From NCBI GenBank assembly GCA_965658655.1, contig CBFHTA010000001.1:424722-488721 (forward strand): a stretch of 64,000 nt of DNA, read 5' to 3'. Positions within the stretch are counted from its first letter, which is position 1, and every line of letters starts with the position of its first letter. The notes beneath the pieces were generated by a model, which saw only the letters and a list, made by a program, of their open reading frames with translations, ran no database searches and had not been told where the DNA came from. Origin of the DNA: Candidatus Babelota bacterium. GTDB lineage: Bacteria > Babelota > Babeliae > Babelales > CAIQNR01. Below are positions 2,522-60,356 of the stretch, piece by piece. The position numbers were made by a program, and so were the translations under genes.

Positions 2522-2595
2522 TTTTAGTTCTCCATTTTAGATATAATGAGAAGACCGAGGCCTCCGTTAATTTAACTGTTTTCTGTACTAGTCTT

Positions 2596-2838
2596 TTACT
2601 TTAATGCTTCTTTTCTTTTTGTTGCTGCTCTTTCTGCTCTTCTTGCTGCTCTTTTTGCTGCTGCTGCTGCTGCTCTTTCTGCTGCTGCTCTTTCGGCTGC
2701 TGCTCTTTCGGCTGCTCTTTTTATCTTGAGTCCTAATTCTACTCTTAATCCTGCTTTTGGTGCCTTTGCTACTCTTCCTGCTGCTTGTACAGGGGCAATG
2801 GTTAAGAGAGTGAGTGAAAGTGCTAATAATTTTTTCAT
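2596..2838 (-). CDS. Small secreted Ala/Arg/Lys-rich protein with AAAER repeats
   Basis: Signal peptide MKKLLALSLTLLTIAPVQA, 15-bp tandem repeats, leader shared with 2968..3405. Confidence 0.75.
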   Translation of the reverse strand: MKKLLALSLTLLTIAPVQAAGRVAKAPKAGLRVELGLKIKRAAERAAAERAAAERAAAAAAKRAARRAERAATKRKEALK

Positions 2839-2967
2839 TTTACATTCCTTTTTTTGTTTTTGCTCAAACCTCTATAGTAAGCATTTGTTAAAAAATCTAC
2901 TTGATAAAGAGTGCTAATAGCAGGGTCTTTTCATAAGTAATTTAGCCTTTGCGCTATTATACATTAA

Positions 2968-3405
2968 TTATTTGCTTAACTCTCTACTACCCATCATTGC
3001 ATCAGAATGCTTTGACTTTTGATTTAAATGTAAACCTACTGGTCTTCTGGCACCTGGAACTTGTGCAGTAGTCTTTTGCTTTCCTTTTGTTGCTTCTTGT
3101 AGGTTTATTGCTTTTTTTAGTAATGCTTCTGCTGCTCGTATTGCTTTTGATGTGTTTGCTGCTGTTGCTGCTATTATGTTTCCTGCTGTTTCCCCTTTTG
3201 TTTTTGCTTTATCGACTGCTGCTTTTGCTGCTCGTATTGCTTTTCCTGCTCCTTTTGTGTTTGCTTTATCGACTGCTATTTTTGCTTTTGTTTTTGCTTT
3301 ATCGACTGCTGCTTCTGCTGCTCGTATTGCTTTTCCTGCTGATTTTGTTGCTTGTGCGTCGGCAAAGGCTAAGAGAGTTAATGAAAGTGTTAATAATTTT
3401 TTCAT
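2968..3405 (-). CDS. Secreted Ala/Lys-rich repeat protein (KAIRAA / AVDKAKTK repeats)
   Basis: Signal peptide MKKLLTLSLTLLAFADAQA, internal repeats, paralogous N-terminus with 2596..2838. Confidence 0.8.
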   Translation of the reverse strand: MKKLLTLSLTLLAFADAQATKSAGKAIRAAEAAVDKAKTKAKIAVDKANTKGAGKAIRAAKAAVDKAKTKGETAGNIIAATAANTSKAIRAAEALLKKAINLQEATKGKQKTTAQVPGARRPVGLHLNQKSKHSDAMMGSRELSK

Positions 3406-3732
3406 TTTACATTCCTTTTTTGTTTTTGCTTAAACCTCCATGGTAAGCAGTTATTAAAAAGTTTACTTGATGGATAGCGCTAATAGCAAGGGTTTTACAG
3501 ATTTTTTTGCGCTGTGAGCTTATATTTTTAAAAAAAGACATCAAAGAGGATTGAAATAGCTTGTTTAAGCTTACAGCCTCATAAGTTTTAGATAGAGGCT
3601 CTCTTTTATGGTTGATAGAATTAATAGAATGAAATTAGATTGTTTTAAGAGTGGTTTTCAATTCTTTAGTCTTAAATTCTCTTTTTTTTTTGAGTATAGT
3701 GATGAAAATCATACTAACGCAGGAATATAAAT

Positions 3733-44866: not shown

Positions 44867-46126
44867 ATGAAAAAAACGTATGTTTATATTTTGTTGTCAT
44901 TGTATGCTTCATTTAGTTTTTGTGCTTCTTCTGGAGTAGGTGGAAACATGTCTGAAGATCGTTTGTTCCGTATTCTCTGTTCTGTCAGTACTGATGAGAA
45001 GGCAGTGCAGACATTTCTTAATTCTGGAGTAGATGTGAATTCCAGAGACGGTTATGGCAGAACTTCGTTGTATTACGCGTGTCATAACAAGTGTCAGGGA
45101 ATGAAGGGAATGGTAGGAAAATTGATTGCTCATAATGCAGATGTAAATGTCAAAGAGAATTCTAAAGATACTCCATTGCATTACGCATGTCATAAAGGTC
45201 ATCAGGAAGCGGTATCGGCATTGATTGATAATAATGCAGAGGTAGATGCCCGTAATGCTAAAGAAAATACTCCATTACATTACGCATGTTTTTACGGTCA
45301 TCAGGAAGTGGCACAGCTCTTGATTGATAATAATGCAGAGGTAGATGCCCGTAATGCTAAAAAAGAGACTCCATTATATTATGCATGCATTAAAGGCTGT
45401 CAGGAAGTGGTAGAGGAATTGCTTGCTCATAATGCAGAGGTAAACTCAACGGATGCTTTTGGAGATACTTTATTGCATAAAGCATGTTGTGCAGAATATA
45501 AGACTGCAGTAGAAAGCTTGCTTGCTCACAATGCAGAGATAAATGCAACGGATGCTCTTGGAGAGACTCCATTGCATAAGATATGTTGCAAAGGAAATCT
45601 CGCTGCAATAGCATTCTTGCTTGAGAACAATGCAAATGTCAATGCGAAAGATTGTGGAGGGGAGACTCCATTGCATAAAGCATCTTGTAATAGTGAGAGT
45701 GAAGTAGTAAGGCGCTTGCTTACTCATAATGCAGAGGTAGATGCCCAAGATTCTTCAGGTGAGACTCCATTACATAAAGCATCTTGTAATGGTCAGAGTC
45801 GAGTAGCAAGGCTTTTGCTTACTAACAATGCAGAGGTAGATGCCCGTAATACTGAAAGAGAGACTCCATTACATTACGCATCTTGTAATGGTCAGATTCG
45901 AGTAGCAAGGCTTTTGCTTACTAAAAATGCAAAGGTAGATGCCCGTAATACTCAAAGAGAGACTCCATTGCATAAAGCATGTCGTAATAGTAAGTATAGT
46001 ACGGTAGATCTCTTGGTTCGTAACAATGCAGAGGTAGGTGCACAAGATTCTTCAGGTGAGATTCCATTAGATAAAGTTTCTTCTAAAGGCGATTCTCAAA
46101 TGGAGTTCTTATTAACGCAGAGGTAG
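44867..46126 (+). CDS. Putative secreted ankyrin-repeat protein
   Basis: Signal peptide and about 11 TPLH.AC 33-aa repeats. Confidence 0.93.
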   Translation: MKKTYVYILLSLYASFSFCASSGVGGNMSEDRLFRILCSVSTDEKAVQTFLNSGVDVNSRDGYGRTSLYYACHNKCQGMKGMVGKLIAHNADVNVKENSKDTPLHYACHKGHQEAVSALIDNNAEVDARNAKENTPLHYACFYGHQEVAQLLIDNNAEVDARNAKKETPLYYACIKGCQEVVEELLAHNAEVNSTDAFGDTLLHKACCAEYKTAVESLLAHNAEINATDALGETPLHKICCKGNLAAIAFLLENNANVNAKDCGGETPLHKASCNSESEVVRRLLTHNAEVDAQDSSGETPLHKASCNGQSRVARLLLTNNAEVDARNTERETPLHYASCNGQIRVARLLLTKNAKVDARNTQRETPLHKACRNSKYSTVDLLVRNNAEVGAQDSSGEIPLDKVSSKGDSQMEFLLTQR

Positions 46127-46166
46127 AGGTATAATTGTTTTTTATTGTTATGAGTTTAGGGGTTTT

Positions 46167-47111
46167 ATGAAAAAAATGTATGTTTATATTTTGTTATCAT
46201 TGTGTACTTCATTCATTTTCTGTGCGTCTTCTGAAGTGGTTGGAAATGTATTCGGAGATACACTATTACATCGTTACTGTTATAGTGGTAATAAGGAGTA
46301 CGTAGAATCATTTCTTGCTAACAAACCAGCAGAAGTAAATGTTAAGAATGATAGTGCTCAAACTCCATTACATAGCGTGTGTACTACTCATTATTGTGAT
46401 GTGGCAGCGGTTTTGCTTGATTATAATGCAGAGGTAGATGCGAAAGAACATCTTGGAGATACACCATTGCATAAAGCATCTTTCAGTGGTCATAAGGATA
46501 TGGCACAGCTTTTAATTGATAATAAAGCACAGATAAATATTAAGAATAATCTTGGAGAGGCTCCATTGTATTATGCATCTTGCAGTGGCCATAAGGATAT
46601 CGCAGCCCTCTTGCTTGCTTATAATGCACAGATAAATATTAAGAATAATCTTGGAGATACACCATTGCATAAAGCATCTTGCAGTGGTCATAAGGATATG
46701 GCAGCCCTCTTGCTTGCTTATAATGCACAGATAAATATTAAGAATGATCTTGGAGATACACCATTGCATTATGCATCTTTCAATGGTCATAAAGATATGG
46801 CACAGCTTTTGATTGATAATAACGCAGATAGAGAGGCACAAGATTGTTGTGGAGATACACCATTGCATAAAGTATGTTGTAAAGGCGATCAGGAGATGGC
46901 ACAGCTCTTGATTGATAATAATGCAGAGGTAAATCCGAAAAATAGTCTTAAGGAAACTCCATTGCATAAAGCATATTCTAAAAGTCATGTAATAATGTCA
47001 CAGCTTTTGATTGATAATAACGCAGATAGAGAGGCACAAGATGATTTTGGGAATACTCCATATCAAGCATATTGTAAGGCTCATCATTTAGTAATAGAGC
47101 CTATTGGTTGA
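46167..47111 (+). CDS. Putative secreted ankyrin-repeat protein, paralog of 44867..46126
   Basis: Near-identical leader and signal peptide, about 8 GDTPLH repeats. Confidence 0.93.
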   Translation: MKKMYVYILLSLCTSFIFCASSEVVGNVFGDTLLHRYCYSGNKEYVESFLANKPAEVNVKNDSAQTPLHSVCTTHYCDVAAVLLDYNAEVDAKEHLGDTPLHKASFSGHKDMAQLLIDNKAQINIKNNLGEAPLYYASCSGHKDIAALLLAYNAQINIKNNLGDTPLHKASCSGHKDMAALLLAYNAQINIKNDLGDTPLHYASFNGHKDMAQLLIDNNADREAQDCCGDTPLHKVCCKGDQEMAQLLIDNNAEVNPKNSLKETPLHKAYSKSHVIMSQLLIDNNADREAQDDFGNTPYQAYCKAHHLVIEPIG

Positions 47112-47169
47112 TAACAATGCAGATATAAAGGTATAACTGTTTTTTATTAGTAGGAATACTGAGGGTTGT

Positions 47170-47709
47170 ATGAAAAAATTTTTAGTTTTAGTTTTATTTT
47201 TATTTAGTACCGTGCAAGCGTCTCAAATTCCTGTCAGAGGTGCATATGAATTTCGATCAAAACCAGAACTTATGCCGAGCCCAAAAACATTAACAGAAGC
47301 TGTTCGTTGGGGAACGCTAGAAGAAGTAAAAATGTTTTTGTCCTGTGGGTGGAACCCTAATGCAAGTGACAAAAATGGTAGAACCTCTATGCACTTTGTA
47401 ATTTTTAGACAAGATAATCATGCTATTTTTATTTTACAAGAACTACTTTTTGCAGGAGGGAGTCTAACGGTGCTAGATAAAAATGAAGCGACCCCTGTAC
47501 ATGAAGCTCTTACCTTGGGTAATAAAAAGGCACTTAAAATATTTATAGTTTCTTATGGTTTGGTTTTTGATTCTTTATTAACTAAGAAATATCCGGTTAT
47601 AGATAAAGTTGCTGTTGAATTGGGTTTTCCTCCGTCACAGGCTACGGTACAAGAGTGCTCTGCTTCTGGTTCTTTTTCAAAAACTATAGCACGTCCAAGC
47701 CCTTTTTAA
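47170..47709 (+). CDS. Putative secreted ankyrin-repeat protein (2-3 repeats)
   Basis: Signal peptide, NASDKNGRTSMHF, DKNEATPVHEA. Confidence 0.8.
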   Translation: MKKFLVLVLFLFSTVQASQIPVRGAYEFRSKPELMPSPKTLTEAVRWGTLEEVKMFLSCGWNPNASDKNGRTSMHFVIFRQDNHAIFILQELLFAGGSLTVLDKNEATPVHEALTLGNKKALKIFIVSYGLVFDSLLTKKYPVIDKVAVELGFPPSQATVQECSASGSFSKTIARPSPF

Positions 47710-48738: not shown

Positions 48739-50193
48739 TTAGGATTTTATCTCTTGCAAATTAAGCTTACGGTCTACCACATAGTTCTCCGTTAGGAACG
48801 CTTTTTGAGCCTGACGGGTGATCATGGTTGGGTGAGCTTTTTTGCCTGCATTGAGCATGTCTATAATACTTACTGTGTTTTGAACCATATAGTCATTGGC
48901 AAGCATTTCTTTACGTTGTTCTTTCCATGGAGTTTTGTCGTCTTTCTTTTTCTTCTTTTCTTTCTTTTCTTCTTTTTCCCCGTGTGGCTTAATTGAGCCC
49001 TTGAGCGCTTTTTCTCTACCATAGGTTTCAGTCATCCATTTATGAGTATCACTTAATGGCAGTCTAGGTTCAATGACAAAATCTGGTGTTACTCCTTTTC
49101 CTTGAATGCATGTATCAAAAGGTAAGTAGTAGAGTGCGGTGGTTAAACGTAGTGCGCATTCATTAGAAAGTGGAATAACTTCTTGTACAGAACCTTTACC
49201 AAAGGTTTGAGTTCCCACTACAAAAACATGCAAATCTTTATCTTTTTCAGAATACACTTTCAGTGTTCCTGCCATAATTTCAGCAGCAGAAGCGGTGTAG
49301 TTATTTACAATAAAGAAGATTGGCATACCTTTTGCAATTGGTAGTGGATCGCGTGTTGTTTTCCAGCTTTCAGTTACTTTGTGTTCACGGTTTTTGGTAA
49401 CAGCAACTAATGTATCTTTTGGTAAGAACAGGCCAGCAATATCAAGTGCAGATTCAAAAAGTCCACCAGTGTTATTACGAAGATCAATAATAATGCCTTT
49501 ACACTTTTTCTCATGGGCTTTTTTTAGAGTGTCTGCTACATGTTGTGCTGATTTTTCGCTAAAGATAGAAAGCAATAAGTAATATACATTTTGATCTGGT
49601 AGATAGAACGAGAGTGAGATTTCATCTTTAATAATGTCTCGTTTTACTTTGAAGTCCATAGGTTCTGGGTATTTGTCTCGCATTACTTTTAGGTTTACGG
49701 TTGAATGACGTTCACCTTTAAGTTTATTCATAATCTGGTCAATTTTCATGCCTTTAATAACATCATCATTAATTTGCATAAGTTTGTCGCCTGCACGAAT
49801 ACCAGCTTTGTCAGATGGTCCTCCAGGCACAATTTCTATGAATGGTAAGAATTCATCATCTTCATCTTTTAAATCTCCTGGAAGAACAACTCCAATACCA
49901 GAAAATTCACCAGACATTTTTTGTTGAAGATTTTTCATATCGTCTGGTCCGAGTACACTAGAGTGAGGATCACGTTTGGCAAAGCTATTAAAGCTATCTA
50001 TGAATGCTTTTTGTACTTCTTTGGCGGTTAAATTTTTATAATATTTGTGATAAATCAGATTTACAACTTCGCTCAGAGTTTGAGACATTTTGATAATTTC
50101 TTGCTCTGCAGGCTGTAGGGTTGACTTGATAATCATGTTTGCTACTAGAGGTTGTATGCAGATGAGGGTGGCGAGTAAAAAAATCTTTTTCAT
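48739..50193 (-). CDS. ctpA: S41 carboxyl-terminal processing protease with PDZ domain
   Basis: DPHS, GIGV, IDLRNNTGG, TASAAEI, TFGKGSVQ. Confidence 0.92.
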   Translation of the reverse strand: MKKIFLLATLICIQPLVANMIIKSTLQPAEQEIIKMSQTLSEVVNLIYHKYYKNLTAKEVQKAFIDSFNSFAKRDPHSSVLGPDDMKNLQQKMSGEFSGIGVVLPGDLKDEDDEFLPFIEIVPGGPSDKAGIRAGDKLMQINDDVIKGMKIDQIMNKLKGERHSTVNLKVMRDKYPEPMDFKVKRDIIKDEISLSFYLPDQNVYYLLLSIFSEKSAQHVADTLKKAHEKKCKGIIIDLRNNTGGLFESALDIAGLFLPKDTLVAVTKNREHKVTESWKTTRDPLPIAKGMPIFFIVNNYTASAAEIMAGTLKVYSEKDKDLHVFVVGTQTFGKGSVQEVIPLSNECALRLTTALYYLPFDTCIQGKGVTPDFVIEPRLPLSDTHKWMTETYGREKALKGSIKPHGEKEEKKEKKKKKDDKTPWKEQRKEMLANDYMVQNTVSIIDMLNAGKKAHPTMITRQAQKAFLTENYVVDRKLNLQEIKS

Positions 50194-50290
50194 GGTTAGT
50201 CCTTTTAATTAGTTCGTGACTCTTCATATCTCTTTACCGTACACTGATCCTAAAAGCGGTGTGAAGACCTTGAAGAAAGGAGAGTCGAAA

Positions 50291-50569
50291 ATGGTCATTA
50301 CTAAACGGCATATGTTACGTATATTTTTCATGTTCGAAATTGTTATTTTTGCTTCGATCTATTTTTTTAGTGCTCAGGGGTTACGTGTTCTGCAGGGCAT
50401 GCAGAAAGAAAATGAGCATGTGTACCAAGAAATAACGTACCTTAAAAGTGAAATTGCCGTTTTAGAAGAAGAAGTTATCGAATGGGAAAACAATTCTTTC
50501 TATAAAGAAAAAATTGCACGTGAAGATTTGCAGATGGCCAAAAAGGGTGATGAGGTTTATTTCTTATAA
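50291..50569 (+). CDS. ftsB: Septum formation initiator (FtsB/DivIC-like; start likely ATG 50291)
   Basis: TM, coiled coil, EKIAREDLQMAKKGDEVY. Confidence 0.75.
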   Translation: MVITKRHMLRIFFMFEIVIFASIYFFSAQGLRVLQGMQKENEHVYQEITYLKSEIAVLEEEVIEWENNSFYKEKIAREDLQMAKKGDEVYFL

Positions 50570-50679
50570 TTTGTTTTTTGTATTTCTCTGAGTACTGTAT
50601 GGGTAGTGCATAAATTTGTGCGATAATAACAATTACGTTAACCTACCAAATTAAAACCATTTACTAAGAGAAAGAAAAA

Positions 50680-51291
50680 ATGTACGAATTACCAAAACTT
50701 CCCTATGACTACGGCGCTCTTGAACCATACATCGAAGCTCAAATCATGGAGCTGCATCATGCAAAGCATCAACAAGCGTATGTAAATGGCCTTAATGCAG
50801 CGCTCGAAAAACATCCTGAGCTCTTTAATAAATCACTTGATGAACTTCTTAAAGATTTAAATGCAATCCCCGAAGATATTCGAACAGCCGTTCGTAATCA
50901 TGGTGGTGGAGTAAAAAACCATACAGATTTTTGGCATGTTATGAAACCAGGCGGTGGTGGTGAACCTAAAGGCCCTGTGGCTCAAAAAATTAAAGAAGCA
51001 TTTGGTAGTTTTAATGCCTTTAAAAATCAATTTACTAAAGTCGGAAAGTCTCGCTTTGGTAGTGGTTGGGCATGGCTCTCTTTAGACAATAACGGTAAGA
51101 TGCTTATCTCTTCTACGGCAAATCAAGATACTCCCCTTTCGGAAGGCCTTCATCCTGTTTTAGGCTTAGATGTGTGGGAACATGCTTACTATCTTCAATA
51201 TTTTAATCGTCGTCCCGATTATATAGATGCTTGGTGGAATACCCTTAATTGGGAAAGAGTTGAAGAAAATTATCATAATCTTGTGGGGTAA
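50680..51291 (+). CDS. sodA: Mn/Fe superoxide dismutase
   Basis: LPYDYGALEP, HHAKHQ, FGSGWAWL, DVWEHAYY. Confidence 0.96.
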   Translation: MYELPKLPYDYGALEPYIEAQIMELHHAKHQQAYVNGLNAALEKHPELFNKSLDELLKDLNAIPEDIRTAVRNHGGGVKNHTDFWHVMKPGGGGEPKGPVAQKIKEAFGSFNAFKNQFTKVGKSRFGSGWAWLSLDNNGKMLISSTANQDTPLSEGLHPVLGLDVWEHAYYLQYFNRRPDYIDAWWNTLNWERVEENYHNLVG

Positions 51292-51321
51292 ATAAGCTTA
51301 TATTTTAAAGAGCCGGCCCAA

Positions 51322-51349
51322 TTGACAAATAGAAAACATTTATTATAAT
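51322..51349 (+). promoter_or_regulatory. Consensus sigma70 promoter of the 51377 orphan gene
   Basis: TTGACA-N16-TATAAT. Confidence 0.75.
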
Positions 51350-51376
51350 AAGTCTTATAGAGTTAGATTTTAATAA

Positions 51377-51862
51377 ATGGAGGTTTCTATGAAAAAGGTA
51401 TTATCGCTTTTAAGTTTATGTTCTTTTGTAGTGCTGCAAGCAGCTTCGATAGGTTCTGATTATAATAAGGTTATAGACTCTGAATTACGTATACAAAGTG
51501 ATGATTCCGGGCTTGTGGAATCACCGATAAGTTTTGATGATTCTTTAGATACCGAGGTTATTATTGCACTTGAAAAACCAATCGAGATTAACGGGAAAAA
51601 GGTTGGTGAAGTTACAGAAACTATAGGACAGCTTCAATTTAAATATAACAATATGCGGGTACTTATTGAGATGCTGTCTCCTTTTATCCATGAGCATGAT
51701 AAAAATCACATGAGAGCTATTTTGAAATACTCTCCTGAAGATAAAAAATCTCTTATTGATCTAGCTAGAGACAAGATGGAAAAACACGGTAACAAAGATA
51801 AAAGATGGGAAGCTCCAAATAATGCTGTGCAGAATTTTACATTTTTGAAGAGTTTAATTTAA
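51377..51862 (+). CDS. Putative secreted hypothetical protein (start likely ATG 51389)
   Basis: GGAGG RBS, MKKVLSLLSLCSFVVLQA signal. Confidence 0.8.
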   Translation: MEVSMKKVLSLLSLCSFVVLQAASIGSDYNKVIDSELRIQSDDSGLVESPISFDDSLDTEVIIALEKPIEINGKKVGEVTETIGQLQFKYNNMRVLIEMLSPFIHEHDKNHMRAILKYSPEDKKSLIDLARDKMEKHGNKDKRWEAPNNAVQNFTFLKSLI

Positions 51863-51883
51863 GATTTTAAACATAAAATACTT

Positions 51884-51920
51884 TTAGAGCCGGTCTATTG
51901 TAGGCCGGCTCTAATTTTTT
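51884..51920 (+). terminator. Rho-independent terminator
   Basis: ttagagccggtcta-ttg-taggccggctctaa plus T-tract. Confidence 0.85.
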
Positions 51921-51972
51921 GGTCTTCTTTTACGGTCTTTACAAAAGACTTGAATGGTAAAAGGGAATTTCA

Positions 51973-52230
51973 ATGGAAAGGTTATTCTTATTATTGAGTT
52001 TATGTACGATAGATTTTACACAAGCAGTAGTTGTATGGCCCAGTCTAGATAAGAAAAAAGAGGAATGAGTGACGGTTTATTTTGCTTCAAGTAGTGTTCT
52101 GACTATCTTCGAGGAATAAGATAATTTTCGGGGTGCAATATTGGTGAATCTGTGAAGAATTCAGGGAGTGCCTGAGGTTGATTCGTAGTATGTTCGGCTT
52201 GAAGAAGGGAACCCATTATTGTTCGAATAG
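51973..52230 (+). pseudogene. Decayed secreted-protein gene remnant
   Basis: AAGGG RBS, MERLFLLLSLCTIDFTQA signal, then several in-frame stops. Confidence 0.4.
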
Positions 52231-52310
52231 TTTGGCTAAAATCCCTAAAAACAGTATACTAAAAGCTTAATGATGGTATTAAAGTAACCGTAGCAAGGGG
52301 ATAAATCCCG

Positions 52311-53819
52311 ATGACCAAAGAAAAAGATCTAAACGTAGAAGATACTCATACTGTTAACCCAGATGCTTCTGAGGAGCACCATATTCGGGTTGAGAAAGTC
52401 AAAAAATTACGAGACCAGGGTATTGAGCCATGGCCTGAATTTAAGGAAGTGCCAAACACTTCTAAGCAGGTTATTGATGAATTTAAAGAAGATTCAGAAG
52501 TTGAGTATGCTATTGCGGGTCGTGTTGTAGCTTTGCGTTGGCATGGAAAAAGTGCTTTTGCGCAGTTGCAAGATCGTCATGGTCGTGTGCAGGTCTACTT
52601 TAAAAAAGATATTATTGGTGAAAAAACGTTTGATCTTTTTCAAGATAACTTAGACTTGGGAGACATTCTCTGGGTTAAGGGAATCACTTTCAAAACTAAA
52701 ACTGGCGAAACTACGATTAAAGCTTTTGAAGGCACACTACTTTCTAAGTGTCTTCATCCTCTACCAGAAAAATTTCATGGTATTGCCGATGTAGAGATTA
52801 AATATCGTCAACGTTATTTAGATCTCATCTCCGACCAAGAGAGTAGAAACAAATTTGTAGTCCGCTCAAAGCTCATTAGCGGACTACGTCATTATCTTGA
52901 AGACCATGAGTTTATGGAAGTAGAAACACCAATGCTTCATCCTATTCCGGGTGGTGCGGTGGCTAAGCCTTTTGTAACACATCATAATGCTCTGCATTCA
53001 GACCTGTATTTGCGTATTGCTCCAGAGCTTTACCTTAAAAGACTTGTCGTTGGTGGATTTGAACGTGTGTATGAAATTAACCGTAGCTTTAGAAACGAAG
53101 GTATTTCTACAAAGCACAATCCTGAATTTACTATGCTAGAGTTCTATATGGCGCACAAAGATTATCATTACATGATGAATTTTGTAGAAGATATGCTCAA
53201 AAAAGTAGTTAAAAAATCATGTGAGACAGATCAAGTTGCATTTGGTGAACATACCTTAGATTTTGCAAAACCATTTGAACGCATGAGTATCAAAGAAGCT
53301 GTGCTTAAACATGGTAATTACAAAGAAGAAGACGTTTCTATCGATAAAATTGACGATGAGATAAAAAAACATGGAGCAAAGCTTCAGGTTAAAGACGCAT
53401 CTTATGGGCAGAAGTTATTTTTATTGTTCGAAGAAGTTGCAGAGTCTCATCTTATTCAACCAACATTTATCACCGACTTTCCGGTAGAAGTTTCTCCACT
53501 TTCAAAGCGTGATGTAAATAATCCAAATTTTGTATCTAGGTTTGAACTGTTCATGGGTGGAATGGAACTTTCTAATTGTTTCAATGAGTTAAACGAACCG
53601 TTTGATCAAGAAGAGCGATTCAAAGAGCAAGCAGCGACTCATGCTGCTGGTGATGACGAAGCAATGCATTTTGACGGTGACTATGTTCGTGCGCTTGAAT
53701 ATGGATTACCTCCAACAGTGGGTGTTGGAATTGGTATTGATCGTCTTGCTATGATTTTAACCAATACTACTTCTATTAAGGACGTTATCTTGTTCCCAAC
53801 CCTTAAGAGAAAAGACTAA
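52311..53819 (+). CDS. lysS: Lysine-tRNA ligase (class II)
   Basis: PLPEKFHG, YRQRYLDLI, LRIAPELYLKRL, FRNEG, GIDRL. Confidence 0.98.
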   Translation: MTKEKDLNVEDTHTVNPDASEEHHIRVEKVKKLRDQGIEPWPEFKEVPNTSKQVIDEFKEDSEVEYAIAGRVVALRWHGKSAFAQLQDRHGRVQVYFKKDIIGEKTFDLFQDNLDLGDILWVKGITFKTKTGETTIKAFEGTLLSKCLHPLPEKFHGIADVEIKYRQRYLDLISDQESRNKFVVRSKLISGLRHYLEDHEFMEVETPMLHPIPGGAVAKPFVTHHNALHSDLYLRIAPELYLKRLVVGGFERVYEINRSFRNEGISTKHNPEFTMLEFYMAHKDYHYMMNFVEDMLKKVVKKSCETDQVAFGEHTLDFAKPFERMSIKEAVLKHGNYKEEDVSIDKIDDEIKKHGAKLQVKDASYGQKLFLLFEEVAESHLIQPTFITDFPVEVSPLSKRDVNNPNFVSRFELFMGGMELSNCFNELNEPFDQEERFKEQAATHAAGDDEAMHFDGDYVRALEYGLPPTVGVGIGIDRLAMILTNTTSIKDVILFPTLKRKD

Positions 53820-54437
53820 TTATTGATGTGTCTTTTCTAATCTTTTAGAAGAGGTAGATTTCATAACTTGTGAGAGACTTGGAGTCCCTTTTTTTCTTTT
53901 AAAAGATGAAGAAGTTTTTTCTTGATGCTTTAAAGTTTTTTTGTGCCTTTTAAGCGAAGAGAGTATTCCAAATGTTTGATTACAAGGAGCACATAAATAA
54001 ACTTTGCTTTTTGTATGTATCCTTATATGAATTTTAAGGGCACCTTTTCGGGCAAAGGTTTTATTACAAGTATCACAAGAAAACGGTTTCTCACCGCTAT
54101 GTTTTGATTGTGTATGAAGTTTAAGGTCACCTTTTCGGGCAAAGGTTTTATTACAAGCATCACAAGGAAACGGTTTCTCACCGCTATGTACTTCTTTTCG
54201 ATGTGTCATTAACCCTTTTTCTTGTGCAAATGTTTGATTGCATTCGCTGCAGCGAGCATTGATTACTTTTTCATGTGTTCTTGTATGTCTTTCCAAAGCA
54301 TTACTTGTTGTGAATATTTGACTGCAGAGATTGCAAAAAAGATCTTTAGAAAAAGTTCTGTTAGAAGATGCAGATTGAACAATAGATGTATTTGTTAAAA
54401 ATAATGCGAAAATTATAACTATTAATTTTTTATTCAT
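53820..54437 (-). CDS. Putative secreted five-finger C2H2 zinc-finger protein with NLS-like KRKK
   Basis: Signal peptide, five CxxC-x12-H-x3/5-H fingers, two HSGEKPF linkers. Confidence 0.9.
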   Translation of the reverse strand: MNKKLIVIIFALFLTNTSIVQSASSNRTFSKDLFCNLCSQIFTTSNALERHTRTHEKVINARCSECNQTFAQEKGLMTHRKEVHSGEKPFPCDACNKTFARKGDLKLHTQSKHSGEKPFSCDTCNKTFARKGALKIHIRIHTKSKVYLCAPCNQTFGILSSLKRHKKTLKHQEKTSSSFKRKKGTPSLSQVMKSTSSKRLEKTHQ

Positions 54438-54488
54438 TTAGGTTCCGAAAATTATAAGATAAAAACTTATTGTGACAGAAAGGGTATT

Positions 54489-54569
54489 ATGAATCAAGCA
54501 TTATTAATGAATCCTGAAGCAGGTTTTCAAGATCAAGAGTATATGGATACCAAAAAAAGAGGTGATTAG
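54489..54569 (+). pseudogene. Truncated duplicate of the 5' end of the DJ-1/PfpI gene
   Basis: MNQALLMNPEAGFQDQEYMDTKK versus MKQVLLMISEVGFQEQEYTDTKK at 55356. Confidence 0.85.
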
Positions 54570-54572
54570 TCA

Positions 54573-54620
54573 TAAGGACGTTACCTTGTTCCCAACCCTT
54601 AAGAGAAAAGACTCATTATT
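54573..54620 (+). repeat. Direct duplicate of the lysS 3' end (53777-53824)
   Basis: 48-nt match with 2 mismatches; the 796-nt offset equals the offset between the two zinc-finger stop codons. Confidence 0.92.
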
Positions 54621-55233
54621 TATTTGTACTTTCTAATCTTTTGAAAGAGGTAGATTTCATAGCTTGTGAGAGACCTGGAGTTTCCTTTTTTCTTTTAAGA
54701 GATAAACCTGCTATTTCTGGATGTTGTGCATTATTGTGCCTTTGCAGCCCATAGTGTCTAGTAAATACGGCGTTGCAAAGAGCGCATAAATAAGATCTGT
54801 GTTTTTTGTGTACTTCATTTATATGTCTGTTAAGAACGTTTTTTCGGCTAAATTCTTTCTTGCAGATATTACAAGAATGGGATGCTTTTTCGCCATGTAC
54901 TTCATCTGTGTGTCTTTTAAGACCCTCTTTTCGAACAAATTTTTTTGGGCAAAAACGGCAAGAATAGGATGCTTTTTCGCCATGTATTTCATTTGTATGT
55001 CGCTTGAGACCATATTTTTCTGTAAATGTACGTGCACATTGGGTGCAACTATAATATCCTTTTTCTTCATGTGTTTTTCTATGTTCTGTAAAATCTTTAT
55101 TTGTTTTAAACATTTGATTACACGTATTGCAGACAATATCTTTAGAAAAAGCTGTGTCAGAAGATGCAGATTGAACAGTAGATGTATTTGTTAGTAATAA
55201 TCCGAAAATTATAATTATTAATTTTTTATTCAT
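54616..55233 (-). CDS. Putative secreted five-finger C2H2 zinc-finger protein with NLS-like KRKK (paralog)
   Basis: Signal peptide, five fingers, HGEKASY/H linkers, termini similar to 53820..54437. Confidence 0.9.
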   Translation of the reverse strand: MNKKLIIIIFGLLLTNTSTVQSASSDTAFSKDIVCNTCNQMFKTNKDFTEHRKTHEEKGYYSCTQCARTFTEKYGLKRHTNEIHGEKASYSCRFCPKKFVRKEGLKRHTDEVHGEKASHSCNICKKEFSRKNVLNRHINEVHKKHRSYLCALCNAVFTRHYGLQRHNNAQHPEIAGLSLKRKKETPGLSQAMKSTSFKRLESTNK

Positions 55234-55355
55234 TTAGATCCCTAAAATTATAATATAAAAGTCTATGTGTTATACTTTGTTTGTTGATATGACTTTATTT
55301 AGGTTTGTGTATTATTTCTTTAAAAATAAAAATTCATTCTGACAGAAAGAGGATT

Positions 55356-55868
55356 ATGAAGCAAGTATTATTAATGATTTCTGAAGTAGGTTTTCAAGAG
55401 CAAGAGTATACGGATACTAAAAAAGTATTAGAAGAGGCAGGGGTTAAAGTTCTTACCACTTCAGATCATTCAAAAGAGGCGATTGGGCATAATGGAGTAA
55501 AGCAAAAAATAGAAGTGCAACTTGACCAAATTAATCCACGAGAATACGATGGTATCTTTGTAATCGGTGGTTCTGGTGCGCTTGATCATTTAAATGTCCC
55601 TAAAGTTCACAAAGTGTTAAGTGAATTTTTTGCTCTCGATAAACCGTACGGTGCTATTTGCATTTCTTCTCGTATTCTTGCTCAAGCAGAATTGTTGCAA
55701 AACAAAAAAGCTGCATGTTGGAACAAAGATGAAAAAGCACAAGCTATTTTGGAAGCTTATGGAGCAGAGTTTGTGGATGAACATGTGGTGACTGATGGCA
55801 AAGTAGTAACAGCTAATGGCCCCGATGCAGCAATAGATTTTGGTAAAGCAATTTTAGAAGTTATATAG
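55356..55868 (+). CDS. DJ-1/PfpI-family protein (start likely ATG 55356)
   Basis: GFQEQEY, YDGIFVIGGSGA, GAIC nucleophile elbow, VVTDGKVVTANGP. Confidence 0.9.
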   Translation: MKQVLLMISEVGFQEQEYTDTKKVLEEAGVKVLTTSDHSKEAIGHNGVKQKIEVQLDQINPREYDGIFVIGGSGALDHLNVPKVHKVLSEFFALDKPYGAICISSRILAQAELLQNKKAACWNKDEKAQAILEAYGAEFVDEHVVTDGKVVTANGPDAAIDFGKAILEVI

Positions 55869-55877
55869 AAAGATAAT

Positions 55878-57614
55878 ATGCAAACAGTGTCCGGCATTAA
55901 ATATTTATGGAAGCTCCCAGAGACAGACACGCAGAAAATGCTTGATATTGCATCTGAATTTAGTCTTTCTATACCTCTTTCTCAAATTCTTATCTCGCGT
56001 GGGTATACAACAAAAGATGCTATAGAGGATTATCTGTTTAGTTCAGAAACCAAAGATGTATCTTCTGCGGTGCTTATGAAAGATGCAGAGAAAGCGGTAG
56101 ATAGAATTTTAACAGCAATAAAAAATAACGAAAAAATCTTAGTCTTTGGTGATTACGATGTTGACGGAATAACTTCTTCTTCTCTTATGATGACGGCACT
56201 AAAACCCCTTGGGGCAGATGTTAATTTTTATTTGCCTCATCGTGTAAAAGATGGTTATGGCCTTTCAACTAAAATTGTAAATCGTGCAGCAGACAATAAT
56301 TATAAAGTTGTTATTACGGTTGATAATGGAACAACTGCCTTTGAACAAGCAAAAGTGGCAAAAGAACGTGGCATTGATTTAATTATTACCGATCATCACC
56401 AACCTCACGGTGACCTTCCAGATGCCTATGCGATTGTAAACCCCCATCAAAAAGATTGCGAGTATCCGTTTAAAGAGTTTGCAGGTGTTGGGGTAACGTT
56501 TAAAATACTTACACTGCTGTATGAGAAGTTAGATAAACAATTGCCTGAAAAAGCCTATGAGCTTTTGCTTCTGGGGACTGTTGCAGATGTTGTGCCATTG
56601 CTCGGAGAAAATCGATTTTGGGTTCGGTACGGTTTGCAGTGGGCCAATACCAAAGAAAGTCTGTCTTTACGTGTCTTAAAAGAGAACGGTAAGTGTACAC
56701 GACCTAAGCTGTCATCTCTTGATGTTGGTTTTAGGATAGCTCCTCAGATTAATGCGTTAGGTCGTTTAGAGGATCCACGACAGGGTGTTGCCTTTTTATT
56801 AGGGGTCGATGAAAAAGAGTCTCGGCATATTGGTTCTGTTTTATATCAACTGAACGAGGCAAGAAAACAGATAGAGCGTACCATATTCGAAGATGTTGAA
56901 ACGTTAATTGAGAATGGCACCATTGACCTGACCAAAGAAAAAATCATTCTTGCAGGTGGAAAAAAATGGCCTCCTGGGGTAATTGGTTTGGTGGCTTCTC
57001 GATTAGTGGGTAAGTATGGTCGCCCTGTTTTACTTTTCCATTTAACAGATAAAGGTAAAGCTAAGGGTTCGTGTAGAACTATTGAACCTTTTAATATTTT
57101 TGAGGCGCTGACAGAAAACTCAGAGTTGCTAGACCAATTTGGTGGGCATGCCATGGCTGCTGGTTTAGCGTTAGATCAAGATAAGTTAGCAGATTTAAAA
57201 CAGGCGCTTGAAAAGCGCGCAGAGCGTCTATTAACGGCAGAAGATTTGCAACAAAAATTAGTGTGCGATGCCGCAATTACTTTACCCGATGTTGGTGCTA
57301 AGTTGGTGCGAGACATGGAGTATTTAGAGCCATTTGGTGCAAAGAATTCTCAACCAACGTTTTATTTGCGTAGTGTATCGTTGGTTCAAAAGCCTCAATT
57401 GTTAAAGCTTTTGCATGTTAAATGCATGGTTTTTGCAGAAGGAATTATTAAGCCTGTTATTTTTTTCAACAGACCTGAATTGTTTGATATACTTAATGCA
57501 CAAGAAGAAGAACCTTTTGATTTGGCTGTTCAGGTGACAGAGAATCATTGGCAAGGACGTTCGCAGGTAGAGTTAATGGGAGTGGACGTTGCTAACACAA
57601 AGGAAGATGCATGA
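55878..57614 (+). CDS. recJ: ssDNA exonuclease RecJ
   Basis: GDYDVDG, ITVDNG, TDHH, GTVADVVPL, GGHAMAAG. Confidence 0.96.
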   Translation: MQTVSGIKYLWKLPETDTQKMLDIASEFSLSIPLSQILISRGYTTKDAIEDYLFSSETKDVSSAVLMKDAEKAVDRILTAIKNNEKILVFGDYDVDGITSSSLMMTALKPLGADVNFYLPHRVKDGYGLSTKIVNRAADNNYKVVITVDNGTTAFEQAKVAKERGIDLIITDHHQPHGDLPDAYAIVNPHQKDCEYPFKEFAGVGVTFKILTLLYEKLDKQLPEKAYELLLLGTVADVVPLLGENRFWVRYGLQWANTKESLSLRVLKENGKCTRPKLSSLDVGFRIAPQINALGRLEDPRQGVAFLLGVDEKESRHIGSVLYQLNEARKQIERTIFEDVETLIENGTIDLTKEKIILAGGKKWPPGVIGLVASRLVGKYGRPVLLFHLTDKGKAKGSCRTIEPFNIFEALTENSELLDQFGGHAMAAGLALDQDKLADLKQALEKRAERLLTAEDLQQKLVCDAAITLPDVGAKLVRDMEYLEPFGAKNSQPTFYLRSVSLVQKPQLLKLLHVKCMVFAEGIIKPVIFFNRPELFDILNAQEEEPFDLAVQVTENHWQGRSQVELMGVDVANTKEDA

Positions 57615-58285
57615 TTATAACAATTGACGGTCCTGCTGCAAGTGGAAAGTCTACTATTGCACGAATGGCGGCAGAGCATCTTAATTTTTATTATTTAAAT
57701 AGTGGTCTTTTGTATCGTGCGGTTACTTATATTCTTATTCATAATCATAAGTATACTCAGCATCAGTTACGGGAGGTAGTGCAGAAAGATATTGATGAAT
57801 GTACAGATATAAAACGTATTTTTTATGCATATAACCCTCAAGAGGGTTCTACTGTAATGTATGATGAGCAAGACATTACCCGCTTTTTAAAAGATCCACA
57901 GATAGATCAATGCGTTTCTATTATAAGTCCTCAAAAGATAGTTAGAGAGGCTCTTTCTGATTTACAACGCGCTATTGCAAAAAGTCATGATGTGGTCGTT
58001 GAAGGGCGAGATGTGGGTTCGGTTGTTTTTCCTCATGCTGATTACAAGTTTTTTCTTACAGCATTACTTGAAGTTAGAGCGGAAAGATGGCGTAAGTATC
58101 AAGAGAAAAAGGGTAATTCTTATTCTTTGGATCAGGTAAAAGAGCTTGTTGCGCATCGTGATTCTAATGATAAGAGTAGGAAGATTTCTCCTTTAATGGT
58201 TCCTGCTCAAGCAATTACCATAGATAATTCGAATCTAAGCCTCCAAGAAACAGTGCAGCAAATTTTAAAACATATTAAAAACTAA
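57611..58285 (+). CDS. cmk: Cytidylate kinase
   Basis: ITIDGPAASGKST, SGLLYRA, EGRDVGSVVFP. Confidence 0.95.
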   Translation: MIITIDGPAASGKSTIARMAAEHLNFYYLNSGLLYRAVTYILIHNHKYTQHQLREVVQKDIDECTDIKRIFYAYNPQEGSTVMYDEQDITRFLKDPQIDQCVSIISPQKIVREALSDLQRAIAKSHDVVVEGRDVGSVVFPHADYKFFLTALLEVRAERWRKYQEKKGNSYSLDQVKELVAHRDSNDKSRKISPLMVPAQAITIDNSNLSLQETVQQILKHIKN

Positions 58286-58315
58286 AAAAAGCCACCCTTA
58301 AGGATGGCTTTTTTT
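58284..58315. terminator. Bidirectional terminator
   Basis: A-tract gccacc...ggatggc T-tract between convergent genes. Confidence 0.75.
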
Positions 58316-58327
58316 AATAGCAGTAGC

Positions 58328-58576
58328 TTATGCAAAAAGAGCGTCTGTGTTGTCTAACTCGATGTGTACATGCTTTTTGTGTTTTTTCGTAGGAGTTGCT
58401 TTGTGCTTTTTCACAACATGCTTCTTATGAGCTGCTTTGTGTTTTTTTACTACATGTTTCTTATGAGCTGCTTTTTTGCTGTGTGTCTTAGCTTTGGGTG
58501 CATTTGAACGTTTGCAGCAACATCCTGGAAGTGCTAAAATTGCAATCGCGCAAAGAGTCATCATTAGTTTCTTCAT
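58328..58576 (-). CDS. Small Lys/His-rich lipoprotein
   Basis: Lipobox LPGC, AAHKKHVVKKHK repeated twice. Confidence 0.75.
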   Translation of the reverse strand: MKKLMMTLCAIAILALPGCCCKRSNAPKAKTHSKKAAHKKHVVKKHKAAHKKHVVKKHKATPTKKHKKHVHIELDNTDALFA

Positions 58577-58760
58577 TCTTCTTTCCCTTTCTTTTGTGAA
58601 GATAAACTATTACTTTTGACCTTTAATTATTTAGAAAATTAAAATCTTTTTTGAAGATAACGTATTCTAAAGAGCGAGTGCAATAAAATAGTCTTGAGAA
58701 GGGTGTTATTGTCGAATAATTTAAGGTAAAATAAATAAAATTAAATTCTTCGGGAGTATC

Positions 58761-60356
58761 ATGGCAAAGTATATATTTGTAACAGGTGGGGTGTTAAGTT
58801 CGGTTGGTAAAGGGATTGTTGCGTCTTCGCTCGGTAAGATCTTAAAAGAGCGAGGCATCAAAGTAGGTATTCAGAAGTTTGATCCGTATATTAACGTTGA
58901 TCCTGGGACGATGTCTCCTTATCAGCATGGAGAAGTTTTTGTTACCAACGATGGAGCAGAAACAGATCTTGACTTAGGGCATTATGAACGCTTTCTTGAT
59001 GTAAATTTACAACGTTCATGCAGTGTAAGTTCAGGGCAAATTTATGCACGTGTTATCGAAAAAGAACGTAGAGGGGATTATTTAGGTGGAACCATTCAGG
59101 TTATTCCGCATATTACACAAGAAATTAAAAATGCTGTTAAGCAAGCTGCAAAAGATACCGATTGTGACGTGCTCATTGTAGAAGTTGGAGGCACCGTAGG
59201 TGATTTAGAGGCAGCACCATTTTTCGAAGCACTTCGTCAATTACAGTATGAAGAAGGTCGAGAAAACACAGCTTTTGTACATGTTTCTTGGTTAGCACAC
59301 ATGGGTGCAACGGGAGAACTTAAAACAAAACCTTCGCAGCATTCATTACGTGAACTTAGATCTATTGGTATTATTCCAGATATTGTTGTTGCTCGTGCAG
59401 ATTATCCTATTGAACGTTCGCTTTGCGAAAAGCTTGGACACTTCTCTAATGTTCCGGGAGACCAAGTACTTTCTTTAATAACAGAAAAAGTTGCTTATAA
59501 GGTTCCTTTAACTCTTGAGAAACAAGGGCTCGGGAAATTTATGGTGAAACGTTTGGCATTAAAGGTGCAAGCGGCTACTCCAGATTGGTCTTGTTGGAAG
59601 ACGCTTATAGAGAATATAGAAACAGATAGTCAAAAAAAACTAACTATTGGTCTGGTGGGTAAATATACTCAATTGCATGATGCTTATTTGTCTGTAGTTG
59701 AAGCATTACGTCATGCTGGGTATGCACAAAGAGTTCAAGTGTCTATCGCTTGGATTAATTCAGAGGAGCTTACTGAAGAAAATGTTGAAGGAGCTCTTTC
59801 GGTATGCGATGGTATTGTGGTGCCGGGTGGTTTTGGGTATCGCGGCGTAGAAGGGAAAATTCTTGCGGCTCGCTGGGCACGTAAAAATAATAAACCATAT
59901 TTAGGTCTTTGTTTAGGGTTGCAAGTAATGTGTATTGATCTTGCTCGTGAGTGTATAGACAAAGCAGCAACGTCTTTTGAGTTTGATGAAAAAGCAAAAA
60001 CACCTATTGTTGCGCTTATGGACGAACAAAAGAAGGTAACCAAAAAAGGCGGCACTATGCGTTTAGGTGTATATCCATGTAAAGTTATTCCTGGTACAAA
60101 AGCAGCGTGCGCATATAATACAGAAGAGATTCAAGAACGTCATCGGCATCGTCTTGAATTTAATAACACATATCGAGATCAATTAGAGAAAGCTGGTTTG
60201 GTAATATCTGGACAATCTCCTGATGGTTCTTTAGTAGAGATTGTGGAGCTTAAAGATCATCCTTTTATGGTTGCGAGCCAATTTCATCCAGAATTTTTAT
60301 CACGGCCAGATAAGGCACACCCGTTGTTTTCAGCATTTCTGCAGGCTACCATTTAA
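58761..60356 (+). CDS. pyrG: CTP synthase
   Basis: FVTGGVLSSVGKG, DPYINVDPGTMSP, GLCLG, ERHRHR, QFHPEF. Confidence 0.98.
   Translation: MAKYIFVTGGVLSSVGKGIVASSLGKILKERGIKVGIQKFDPYINVDPGTMSPYQHGEVFVTNDGAETDLDLGHYERFLDVNLQRSCSVSSGQIYARVIEKERRGDYLGGTIQVIPHITQEIKNAVKQAAKDTDCDVLIVEVGGTVGDLEAAPFFEALRQLQYEEGRENTAFVHVSWLAHMGATGELKTKPSQHSLRELRSIGIIPDIVVARADYPIERSLCEKLGHFSNVPGDQVLSLITEKVAYKVPLTLEKQGLGKFMVKRLALKVQAATPDWSCWKTLIENIETDSQKKLTIGLVGKYTQLHDAYLSVVEALRHAGYAQRVQVSIAWINSEELTEENVEGALSVCDGIVVPGGFGYRGVEGKILAARWARKNNKPYLGLCLGLQVMCIDLARECIDKAATSFEFDEKAKTPIVALMDEQKKVTKKGGTMRLGVYPCKVIPGTKAACAYNTEEIQERHRHRLEFNNTYRDQLEKAGLVISGQSPDGSLVEIVELKDHPFMVASQFHPEFLSRPDKAHPLFSAFLQATI

Follow-up and report, generated by a model that had tools for sequence, protein, structure and literature searches.

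Two tandem genes, here called ZnF1 and ZnF2, lie in a stretch of 64,000 nucleotides (nt) from a genome of the order Babeliales (the window). Each encodes a protein of 205 amino acids (aa) in which a eukaryote-type polydactyl C2H2 zinc-finger array follows a bacterial Sec signal peptide. With modest confidence, the two proteins are regarded here as lineage-specific effector candidates from a class that appears to be widespread in Babeliales. Members of the Dependentiae, to which the order belongs, are obligate intracellular parasites of protists.

According to the proposed mechanism, the proteins would be exported through SecYEG, with signal peptidase I cutting the leader after VQS. They would then pass through a periplasm that seemingly lacks DsbA and DsbB, so that the finger cysteines would stay reduced. 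Secretins of the type II secretion system (T2SS) type or outer-membrane vesicles may deliver the arrays to the protist cytoplasm, where zinc loading would be followed by nuclear import mediated by the basic motif KRKK. In the nucleus, the five contiguous fingers would occupy about 15 base pairs (bp) of DNA, read via helix positions -1, +2, +3, and +6. As the 205-aa proteins have no acidic or other effector domain, they would act via occupancy or via their conserved tail. New specificities might arise when fingers are duplicated, when contact residues diversify, and when finger blocks are exchanged or converted between the conserved ends. Drawing on architecture, comparative genomics, and signatures of selection, we consider export as effectors to be the best explanation, a somewhat probable one rather than an assured one.

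Finger arrays and leaders of the pair

The Pfam family zf-C2H2 (PF00096) matches ZnF1 with an E-value of 7e-22 (77.0 bits) and ZnF2 with 1.7e-20 (72.7 bits), the cut-off being 25.2 bits. Each protein contains the motif C-x2-C-x12-H-x3-5-H five times, and the zinc ligands are complete in all ten fingers. The C2H2 pattern of ligands and core residues holds in 10/10 fingers, although finger 1 of ZnF2 has Phe at the core Leu position. All eight linkers of the pair keep the canonical seven residues from the last His to the next Cys; by sequence, two of the eight carry SGEKP, two carry GEKAS, and the others are unlike the TGEKP consensus. H-x4-H spacing is seen in four of the five ZnF2 fingers and in two ZnF1 fingers. 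The AlphaFold2 model of ZnF1, computed from 30 aligned sequences, has a mean predicted local distance difference test score (pLDDT) of 82, and in its five beta-beta-alpha units the score exceeds 90. Residues 3-19 form a helix of their own at the N-terminus, followed by a disordered stretch, and the tail is of low confidence. The initial annotation, made from the sequence alone, had described five fingers per protein, ten recognition helices, a KRKK motif with a conserved tail, and HSGEKPF linkers in the first copy. All of these were recovered: the helix sequences are as annotated, KRKK occupies the same residues in both proteins, the tails align, and HSGEKPF occurs twice.

Comparison with known structures points in the same direction. 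A phmmer search of the PDB placed ZNF568 first (3.6e-65), followed by CTCF, Aart, and PRDM9. Foldseek, run on the ZnF1 model, returned Aart, ZBTB24, CTCF, PRDM9, and ZFP568 as the best matches (E 4e-12), all of them DNA-bound arrays. Judged by this comparison, the fold, the spacing, and the partly TGEKP-type linkers of the pair would be those of DNA-reading arrays. Helix positions -1, +3, and +6 are the canonical base-contact positions of C2H2 fingers. KRKK, a putative nuclear localisation signal (NLS), fits the classical monopartite pattern K-K/R-x-K/R.

The nearest relatives of the pair are distant. Orthologues of its leader and tail were found neither in its own genome beyond ZnF1 and ZnF2, nor in 15 genomes of the same family, nor in a word-indexed set of 5.8 billion proteins. 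The best protein matches, to zinc-finger proteins of teleosts, reach about 40% identity; since no eukaryotic protein is nearer than this, no donor can be named. Single finger units, at 23 residues, are too short and saturated for a tree of their origin. ZnF2 is 34-36% identical (ungapped) to a Heimdallarchaeota array and 28-31% identical to a sister array family of its own genome, and the pair is evidently a different subfamily from that sister array. The Heimdallarchaeota arrays show the same H-x4-H finger style as ZnF2, of the form 'RKD.L.RH...VH'.

Sec leaders were recognised by a home-made rule together with inspection by eye: a basic n-region, a hydrophobic core of at least nine residues, and small residues at -3 and -1. 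Both leaders of the pair satisfy this rule for signal peptidase I (SPase I) substrates, with cleavage predicted after VQS, which upholds the conserved signal peptide of the initial annotation, with its MNKK start and a hydrophobic core modelled within the N-terminal helix. Within the genome, all eight array genes pass the rule, versus 255 of the 674 open reading frames (ORFs) of at least 150 aa. By eye, 10 of the 11 ankyrin ORFs also begin with a signal-like leader. Three of the ankyrin-repeat ORFs (431, 331, and 190 aa) are adjacent in the window at about 45155-47600 (469876-472274 of contig 1, plus strand); they have signal-like leaders, two of which are near-identical.

The genome also holds candidate components of an export route, namely two secretins, one GspE ATPase, and one Peptidase_S26 (signal peptidase I). 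VirB4, FHIPEP, DsbA, and DsbB gave no match in the assembly, which is 95% complete, so that non-detection does not prove absence; with FHIPEP and VirB4 not found, no type III or type IV secretion system was detected. By comparison, the genome would thus offer an export route of the Sec/T2SS type. A T2SS with two gspD copies is reported for every TM6 genome studied (PMC4776705). For Chromulinavorax destructans of the same phylum, signal peptides are reported on 44% of coding sequences, including ankyrins, and its cells are described as lying free in the host cytoplasm and budding vesicles (PMC6561590).

With a hydrophobic core behind its basic n-region, the leader would put the fingers on the far side of the cytoplasmic membrane, cleaved or uncleaved, and the bacterial chromosome would therefore be beyond their reach. 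This speaks against the very improbable alternative that the proteins are DNA-binding regulators or nucleoid proteins of the bacterium itself and that their hydrophobic N-terminus is no export signal. C2H2-like regulators such as Ros/MucR do exist in bacteria, and small genomes are poor in regulators. However, the leader is modelled as a helix apart from the array, ROS_MUCR is absent among the 17 and 16 Pfam families that the two proteins match at E<=0.01, and prokaryotic arrays from other phyla are without a leader.

Sister family, distribution, and diversification

PF00096 has 39 matches in the genome, in eight array genes (the pair and six others). The sister array is a tandem array at 520259-521004 of contig 1 and 1-3960 of contig 2 that spans the contig break. 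It counts at least eight genes: besides the six, contig 1 ends in the first codons of a further one, and contig 2 begins inside one. A dead gene start follows its final copy, and the genes are separated by identical 24-nt spacers with AAGGAGGT, a ribosome-binding site of the Shine-Dalgarno type. The genes share a layout of hydrophobic leader, acidic linker of 66-79 aa, KKRKR, and four to seven fingers. The acidic linker holds 10-14 Asp/Glu versus 0-6 Lys/Arg, KKRKR stands seven residues ahead of finger 1 in five of six genes, and the linkers between fingers are TGEKP or TGERP nearly throughout. The acidic, hydrophobic linker may be activation-domain-like, and the whole layout is what an exported transcription activator would be expected to look like. 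Searched in the word-indexed protein set, the family's N-terminal module retrieved only its own paralogs (2 proteins among 41 candidates). A search of 1.84 billion representatives gave four matches, namely its own paralog, a 183-aa relative that likewise ends in C2H2 fingers, a fragment, and a weakly matching repeat protein.

The sister family varies where a DNA-reading array would be expected to vary. Across its 31 fingers, all with complete zinc ligands, the ligand and core positions have the least entropy and helix positions -1, +3, and +6 the most (2.5, 2.7, and 3.0 bits). Substitution rates were compared in 15 non-overlapping pairs of nearest-neighbour fingers with 80-99% nucleotide identity. 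The nonsynonymous rate (dN) is 0.253 at contact positions, 0.229 in the rest of the helix, and 0.105 in the framework, whereas the synonymous rate (dS) over all sites is 0.098. For contact nonsynonymous versus all synonymous change, the Fisher test gives p 0.003. The pattern matches what diversifying selection on DNA specificity would predict and may serve as indirect support for the pair.

C2H2 arrays extend well beyond this genome. At E<=0.001, PF00096 was found in 13 of 15 genomes of the same family and in 5 of 25 from other families of the order. At E<=1e-5, a sample of the phylum had matches in 45 of 251 genomes (35 of the 189 that are at least 90% complete; 28 of 141 genera), several of the positive genomes being single contigs. 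In 24 related genomes, 48 ORFs have two or more fingers, and 37 of the 41 that are complete at the N-terminus begin with a signal-like leader, an upper estimate as the start was chosen among upstream Met codons in favour of a leader. This census, which the initial annotation had set as a check, thus supports it, and ZnF1 and ZnF2 appear to be the visible tip of a phylum-wide pattern of exported-type C2H2 arrays. In another family of the order, one genome (G184, contig 1 232500-243500) carries nine tandem array genes within 11 kilobases (kb), with 2-12 fingers each. They evidently represent an independent expansion with the same layout and with near-identical leaders of the MKT(L/F)SLFLLCLF type. 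Several array ORFs of relatives begin with 'MEVIM...', where the EV(I/V) codons constitute the Shine-Dalgarno sequence GGAGGT; the second Met is therefore the likely true start, and automatic calls may be five residues too long.

Other prokaryotes have arrays as well. A contig scan with finger patterns, too narrow to serve as a census, matched 62 stretches, of which nine were confirmed at eight loci, none from Babeliales; arrays were found in Endozoicomonas, Heimdallarchaeota, and Xenorhabdus. By eye, none of about 11 array ORFs from these three groups has a hydrophobic leader. The same scan with leader peptides as patterns matched 463 stretches, of which none was confirmed. In public databases, proteins of this kind already bear generic names such as 'C2H2-type zinc finger protein [Endozoicomonas sp.]'.

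Within the pair, the fingers themselves have been duplicated. ZnF1 holds an 87-nt tandem duplication whose 77-nt core has four differences, all nonsynonymous, two of them at helix +3 and +6. This duplication looks clearly recent, and the one in ZnF2 appears older and is weaker. The initial annotation had given each gene its own 87-bp duplication. The periodicity is indeed present in both (94% and 78% matches), but independence of the two events does not follow. Fingers 3 and 4 of ZnF1 are 60-65% alike to fingers 3 and 4 of ZnF2 in all four cross-comparisons, and a single ancestral finger duplication with homogenisation within each gene would be as likely as two independent duplications.

The two genes are also a mosaic of divergence. 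Unit-to-unit identity is 87-91% in leader, tail, and scars and declines by degrees toward the centre of the finger block, where it is 51-60%. Between ZnF1 and ZnF2, Nei-Gojobori (NG86) dS is 0.05 in the leader, 0.21 in the tail, and 0.71 in the finger block, so that at silent sites the finger block would be about five-fold older than the ends and flanks. Where both genes encode the same amino acid, the codons differ in 2 of 44 cases in the ends versus 14 of 53 within the finger block (Fisher p 0.005), and NG86 synonymous differences number 5 per 44 sites versus 37.5 per 82 sites (p 6e-5). Positional orthology is still recognisable within the block, from diagonal finger identities of 60-67%. 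The framework dN/dS of 0.58, together with two uninterrupted ORFs, indicates that the pair is still functional and under purifying selection.

This mosaic constrains how the helices came to differ. As the finger block has diverged at silent sites, the helices have not merely mutated since a recent duplication, and simple positive selection after duplication was rejected as the sole cause for the pair. One possible history is that the finger block of one copy was swapped by recombination with a diverged allele or paralog, the conserved ends serving as anchors. Another is an old duplication in which gene conversion has held the ends and the neighbouring scars similar. Cassette exchange or gene conversion of the ends would be needed in addition to mutation. 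The initial proposal that targets shift by finger duplication and mutation therefore stands in part: the recent duplication in ZnF1 and the contact changes of the sister family agree with it, but mutation alone does not explain the pair.

Several observations weigh against the exported-effector reading. In the pair, dN/dS at contact positions is 1.26, a non-significant value from four positions and about 20 codons, and the divergence at silent sites extends over the whole finger block. The framework of the sister family has a dN/dS of about 1.0 (0.105/0.101); moreover, the finger pairs were picked by identity, the counts are small, and recombination among fingers may inflate the contact rate. 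Signal-like leaders are frequent in the genome, being present in 38% of ORFs, and neither paralogs nor relatives count as independent cases; the raw numbers therefore overstate the argument from leaders. T2SS cargo usually folds in the periplasm. Additionally, KRKK is just four residues within a basic protein, and runs of at least four Lys/Arg outside the fingers occur in only a minority of the array ORFs of relatives. Lastly, C2H2 fingers can bind RNA or protein as well.

This versatility favours an alternative that we hold to be unlikely, in which the proteins are exported and, rather than acting as nuclear transcription effectors, bind host RNA, host proteins, or organelle DNA. Pfam additionally scores zf-C2H2_jaz and zf-met, which are RNA-binding types, on the pair. 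SGEKP in so few linkers, the H-x4-H fingers, the lack of an activation or repression domain in the pair, and a basic cluster that is not universal among relatives fit this alternative as well; for organelles, Chromulinavorax, which replicates wrapped in a host mitochondrion, may serve as an example. On the other hand, every linker has canonical spacing, and searches by sequence and by fold both rank DNA-bound arrays first. Known base-contact positions are where the sister family varies most and where its surplus of nonsynonymous change lies, and the place of KKRKR ahead of finger 1 likewise speaks for nuclear effectors.

A further alternative, which appears improbable, holds that eukaryote-derived gene families expand and turn over with little or no function in the bacterium. 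Patchy occurrence in the phylum, the lack of leader and tail orthologues in same-family genomes and the large protein set, the sister framework ratio near one, and the frequent location of arrays at contig ends would suit such turnover. However, these genomes measure merely 0.7-1.7 megabases, and useless DNA is expected to be lost from them. Intact zinc ligands in every finger of the pair and the sister family, purifying selection on the framework of the pair, leaders retained over 24 genomes, and identical ribosome-binding sites in the sister spacers also argue for maintained function.

A wider version of the exported-effector reading is offered tentatively. Phylum-wide, Babeliales may possibly have built a bacterial counterpart of transcription activator-like (TAL) effectors, in which C2H2 arrays exported by Sec/T2SS enter the protist nucleus and switch chosen host genes, while contact residues are under diversifying selection and whole finger cassettes recombine between leader and tail handles. 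The swapping of cassettes between these handles is included because the mosaic of ZnF1 and ZnF2 suggests it. In this wider version, which we would not yet call probable, the proteins would carry a signal peptide ahead of a polydactyl array, in many cases with an acidic activation-like linker and the nuclear signal KRKR in between.

Locus and neighbouring genes

The source organism is, by its genes, evidently a member of Babeliales (Dependentiae/TM6, Babelota); its LysS protein is 63-74% identical to proteins labelled 'Candidatus Babeliales bacterium'. The genome measures 928,713 bp in four contigs, with 37% guanine plus cytosine (GC), and the pair lies within a contig of 521 kb. Public sequencing runs that contain the locus are marine plankton metagenomes, with no RNA run among those listed. 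ZnF1 and ZnF2 are head-to-tail on the minus strand and 48% identical as proteins (99/206, E 4e-54). As the initial annotation had it, two 205-aa paralogs stand among bacterial genes (Table 1).

Table 1. Features of the ZnF1/ZnF2 locus, in positions of the window
Feature	Position	Strand	Basis
ZnF1 gene (leader, five C2H2 fingers, KRKK, tail)	53820..54437	-	ORF; PF00096 E 7e-22; AlphaFold2 pLDDT 82
ZnF1 leader, residues 1-22 (n-region MNKK, hydrophobic core, VQS before ASS; putative cleavage site)	54372..54437	-	Sec rule; model helix
ZnF1 finger block, residues 33-171 (linkers EKVINAR, SGEKPFP, SGEKPFS, TKSKVYL)	53925..54341	-	sequence; Foldseek
87-nt tandem duplication, fingers 3 and 4 of ZnF1	54026..54189	-	Tandem Repeats Finder, 94% matches
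KRKK of ZnF1, residues 180-183 (putative NLS)	53889..53900	-	sequence
ZnF1 tail, residues 172-205 (common to ZnF2, otherwise absent from genome)	53823..53924	-	alignment
ZnF2 gene, 205-aa paralog of ZnF1	54616..55233	-	ORF; Pfam; pairwise alignment
ZnF2 leader, residues 1-22	55168..55233	-	Sec rule; sequence
ZnF2 finger block, residues 33-171 (4/5 fingers H-x4-H)	54721..55137	-	sequence
87-nt periodicity, fingers 2-4 of ZnF2	54809..55001	-	Tandem Repeats Finder, 78% matches
KRKK of ZnF2, residues 180-183 (putative NLS)	54685..54696	-	sequence
ZnF2 tail, residues 172-205	54619..54720	-	alignment
Scar, dead 5' DJ-1 copy, residues 6-50, 2 stop codons	54453..54587	+	tblastn
Scar, copy of final 43 nt of lysS (53777-53819), 95% identity	54573..54615	+	nucleotide alignment
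lysS, context gene, convergent with ZnF1	52311..53819	+	ORF; protein identity
DJ-1/PfpI family gene, context, divergent from ZnF2	55305..55868	+	Pfam E 1.7e-34
recJ, context gene	55878..57614	+	ORF; about 90% like recJ of same-genus genome G001, by eye

The pair is evidently the product of a tandem duplication whose unit of about 800 bp took pieces of lysS and DJ-1 with it. Two scars remain between the genes; of the DJ-1 scar, 54456-54557 repeats the 5' end of the gene with 86% nucleotide identity over 102 nt. These scars bear on the possibility that host DNA was joined to a bacterial contig by an assembly or binning artefact, which we hold to be scarcely credible. Top protein matches among teleost zinc-finger proteins at about 40% identity and a sister array located at contig ends could be cited in its favour. 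Against it, both outer junctions, lysS with ZnF1 (53544-53897) and ZnF2 with DJ-1 (55158-55576), are spanned by contigs with 100% identity that the same study obtained from a second sample, and the duplicated unit itself includes bacterial genes. The genes are free of introns and have bacterial leaders, the sister array has Shine-Dalgarno spacers, and GC at third codon positions (GC3) is 0.19-0.20 in ZnF1 and ZnF2, under the genome mean of 0.27. Arrays also occur inside single-contig genomes of relatives. A host-DNA chimera thus appears excluded for practical purposes, in keeping with the initial annotation, which had taken the genes to be genuinely bacterial.

The slot upstream of DJ-1 is occupied differently in the one other genome of its genus (G001, contig 2: 29178-32729). 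It holds an ORF of 471 aa (2098-3513, minus strand) in place of the pair, with a eukaryote-type PLA2_B lysophospholipase domain at 24.4 bits, just above the cut-off of 23. The slot therefore seems to be variable for eukaryote-like genes. DJ-1 is just 58% identical between the two genomes, and the adjacent recJ is about 90% alike by eye.

A scan for promoters and terminators gave 6 promoter-like sites versus 7.4 expected, no signal above chance; one 10/12 promoter-like site lies directly upstream of ZnF1 at 54478-54451. Rfam had no matches across 50000-59000. Further along, at 58328-58576 on the minus strand, an ORF of 82 aa begins with a lipoprotein-like leader (LPGCCCK) and continues with repeats of a very basic unit, AHKKHVVKKHKA; its sole Pfam match (TMIE) is weak and under the cut-off.

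Comparison with known systems

A few plant pathogens are known to use transcription-factor-like effectors, built from a repeat type of bacterial invention. What would be new here is a DNA-reading effector candidate that combines a module borrowed from eukaryotes with export along the general secretory pathway; DNA-reading effectors as such are already known. No description of bacterial exported C2H2-array effectors was found among the papers listed, some judged by title, in searches of the literature on Dependentiae, intracellular bacteria, Legionella effectors, and nucleomodulins, with subscription journals and supplements outside the scope of the searches. In a 2021 review of bacterial nucleomodulins, zinc-finger mentions concern host proteins or a MYND motif (PMC7819608), and the words 'zinc' and 'C2H2' do not occur in a 2025 single-cell study covering Babelota (PMC12644861). 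If the reading is true, Dependentiae, a large and almost unstudied group, could control host genes without type III or type IV injection, and would offer a clean example of bacterial domestication of a eukaryotic DNA-binding domain. They would also hold a natural library of compact arrays of 2-12 fingers, shaped by selection for new DNA targets. Furthermore, predicted motifs matched to protist promoters could help to identify unknown hosts.

The closest functional parallel is found in the TAL effectors (TALEs) of Xanthomonas and Ralstonia (AvrBs3, PthXo1, RipTAL), which likewise are bacterial proteins with tandem DNA-reading modules and an NLS, a function that KRKK would have in the pair. TALEs are brought into the host, whose promoters they act on, and they change specificity by repeat variation and recombination; the same is proposed, by analogy, for the ZnF arrays. 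TALE repeats are helical hairpins of 33-35 aa with a two-residue readout, whereas the repeats of the pair are zinc-bound beta-beta-alpha fingers of 28-29 aa and of eukaryotic type. TALEs use type III secretion, in contrast to the Sec leaders of a genome in which FHIPEP was not found, and they carry an acidic activation domain that the 205-aa proteins are without. The analogy drawn in the initial annotation therefore applies to function and not to protein family.

By family, fold, spacing, and partly TGEKP-type linkers, the pair resembles the eukaryotic polydactyl C2H2 proteins, such as ZNF568 and other KZFPs, CTCF, PRDM9, and the designed Aart; variability concentrated at -1, +3, and +6, as in the sister family, is a further likeness. 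Unlike these, ZnF1 and ZnF2 are encoded on a bacterial chromosome, begin with a signal peptide, are only 205 aa long, and have no KRAB, BTB, SCAN, or ZAD domain. Ros/MucR proteins share with the pair a bacterial origin and a Cys2His2 zinc site, and they bind DNA. They are, however, cytoplasmic regulators of bacterial genes with a single atypical finger in a larger globular domain, unlike the five classical fingers found here without a ROS_MUCR match.

Other prokaryotes also encode tandem C2H2 arrays, including Endozoicomonadaceae, Heimdallarchaeota, and Xenorhabdus innexi; among the first, Kistimonas is reported to be enriched in zinc-finger proteins (PMC12491435). These arrays differ from the pair in being leaderless by eye, so that delivery, if any, would take another route. 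Within the phylum, the ankyrin proteins of Chromulinavorax destructans are similar in placing multi-copy eukaryote-like repeats behind a Sec leader, whereas ankyrin repeats bind proteins and do not read DNA. The paper on that organism makes no mention of DNA-reading arrays in this role, and 'zinc' occurs in it once, about transport (PMC6561590). Finally, the rice blast fungus is reported to secrete MoHTR1, MoHTR2, and MoHTR3, small C2H2 proteins whose place of action is the host nucleus (PMC10189765, PMC12488382). Like ZnF1 and ZnF2, they are small, pathogen-made, and composed of a signal peptide and C2H2 fingers. Unlike these eukaryotic proteins, which are secreted through the endoplasmic reticulum, the arrays described here are longer, form tandem gene families, and are made by a bacterium that must have acquired the domain.

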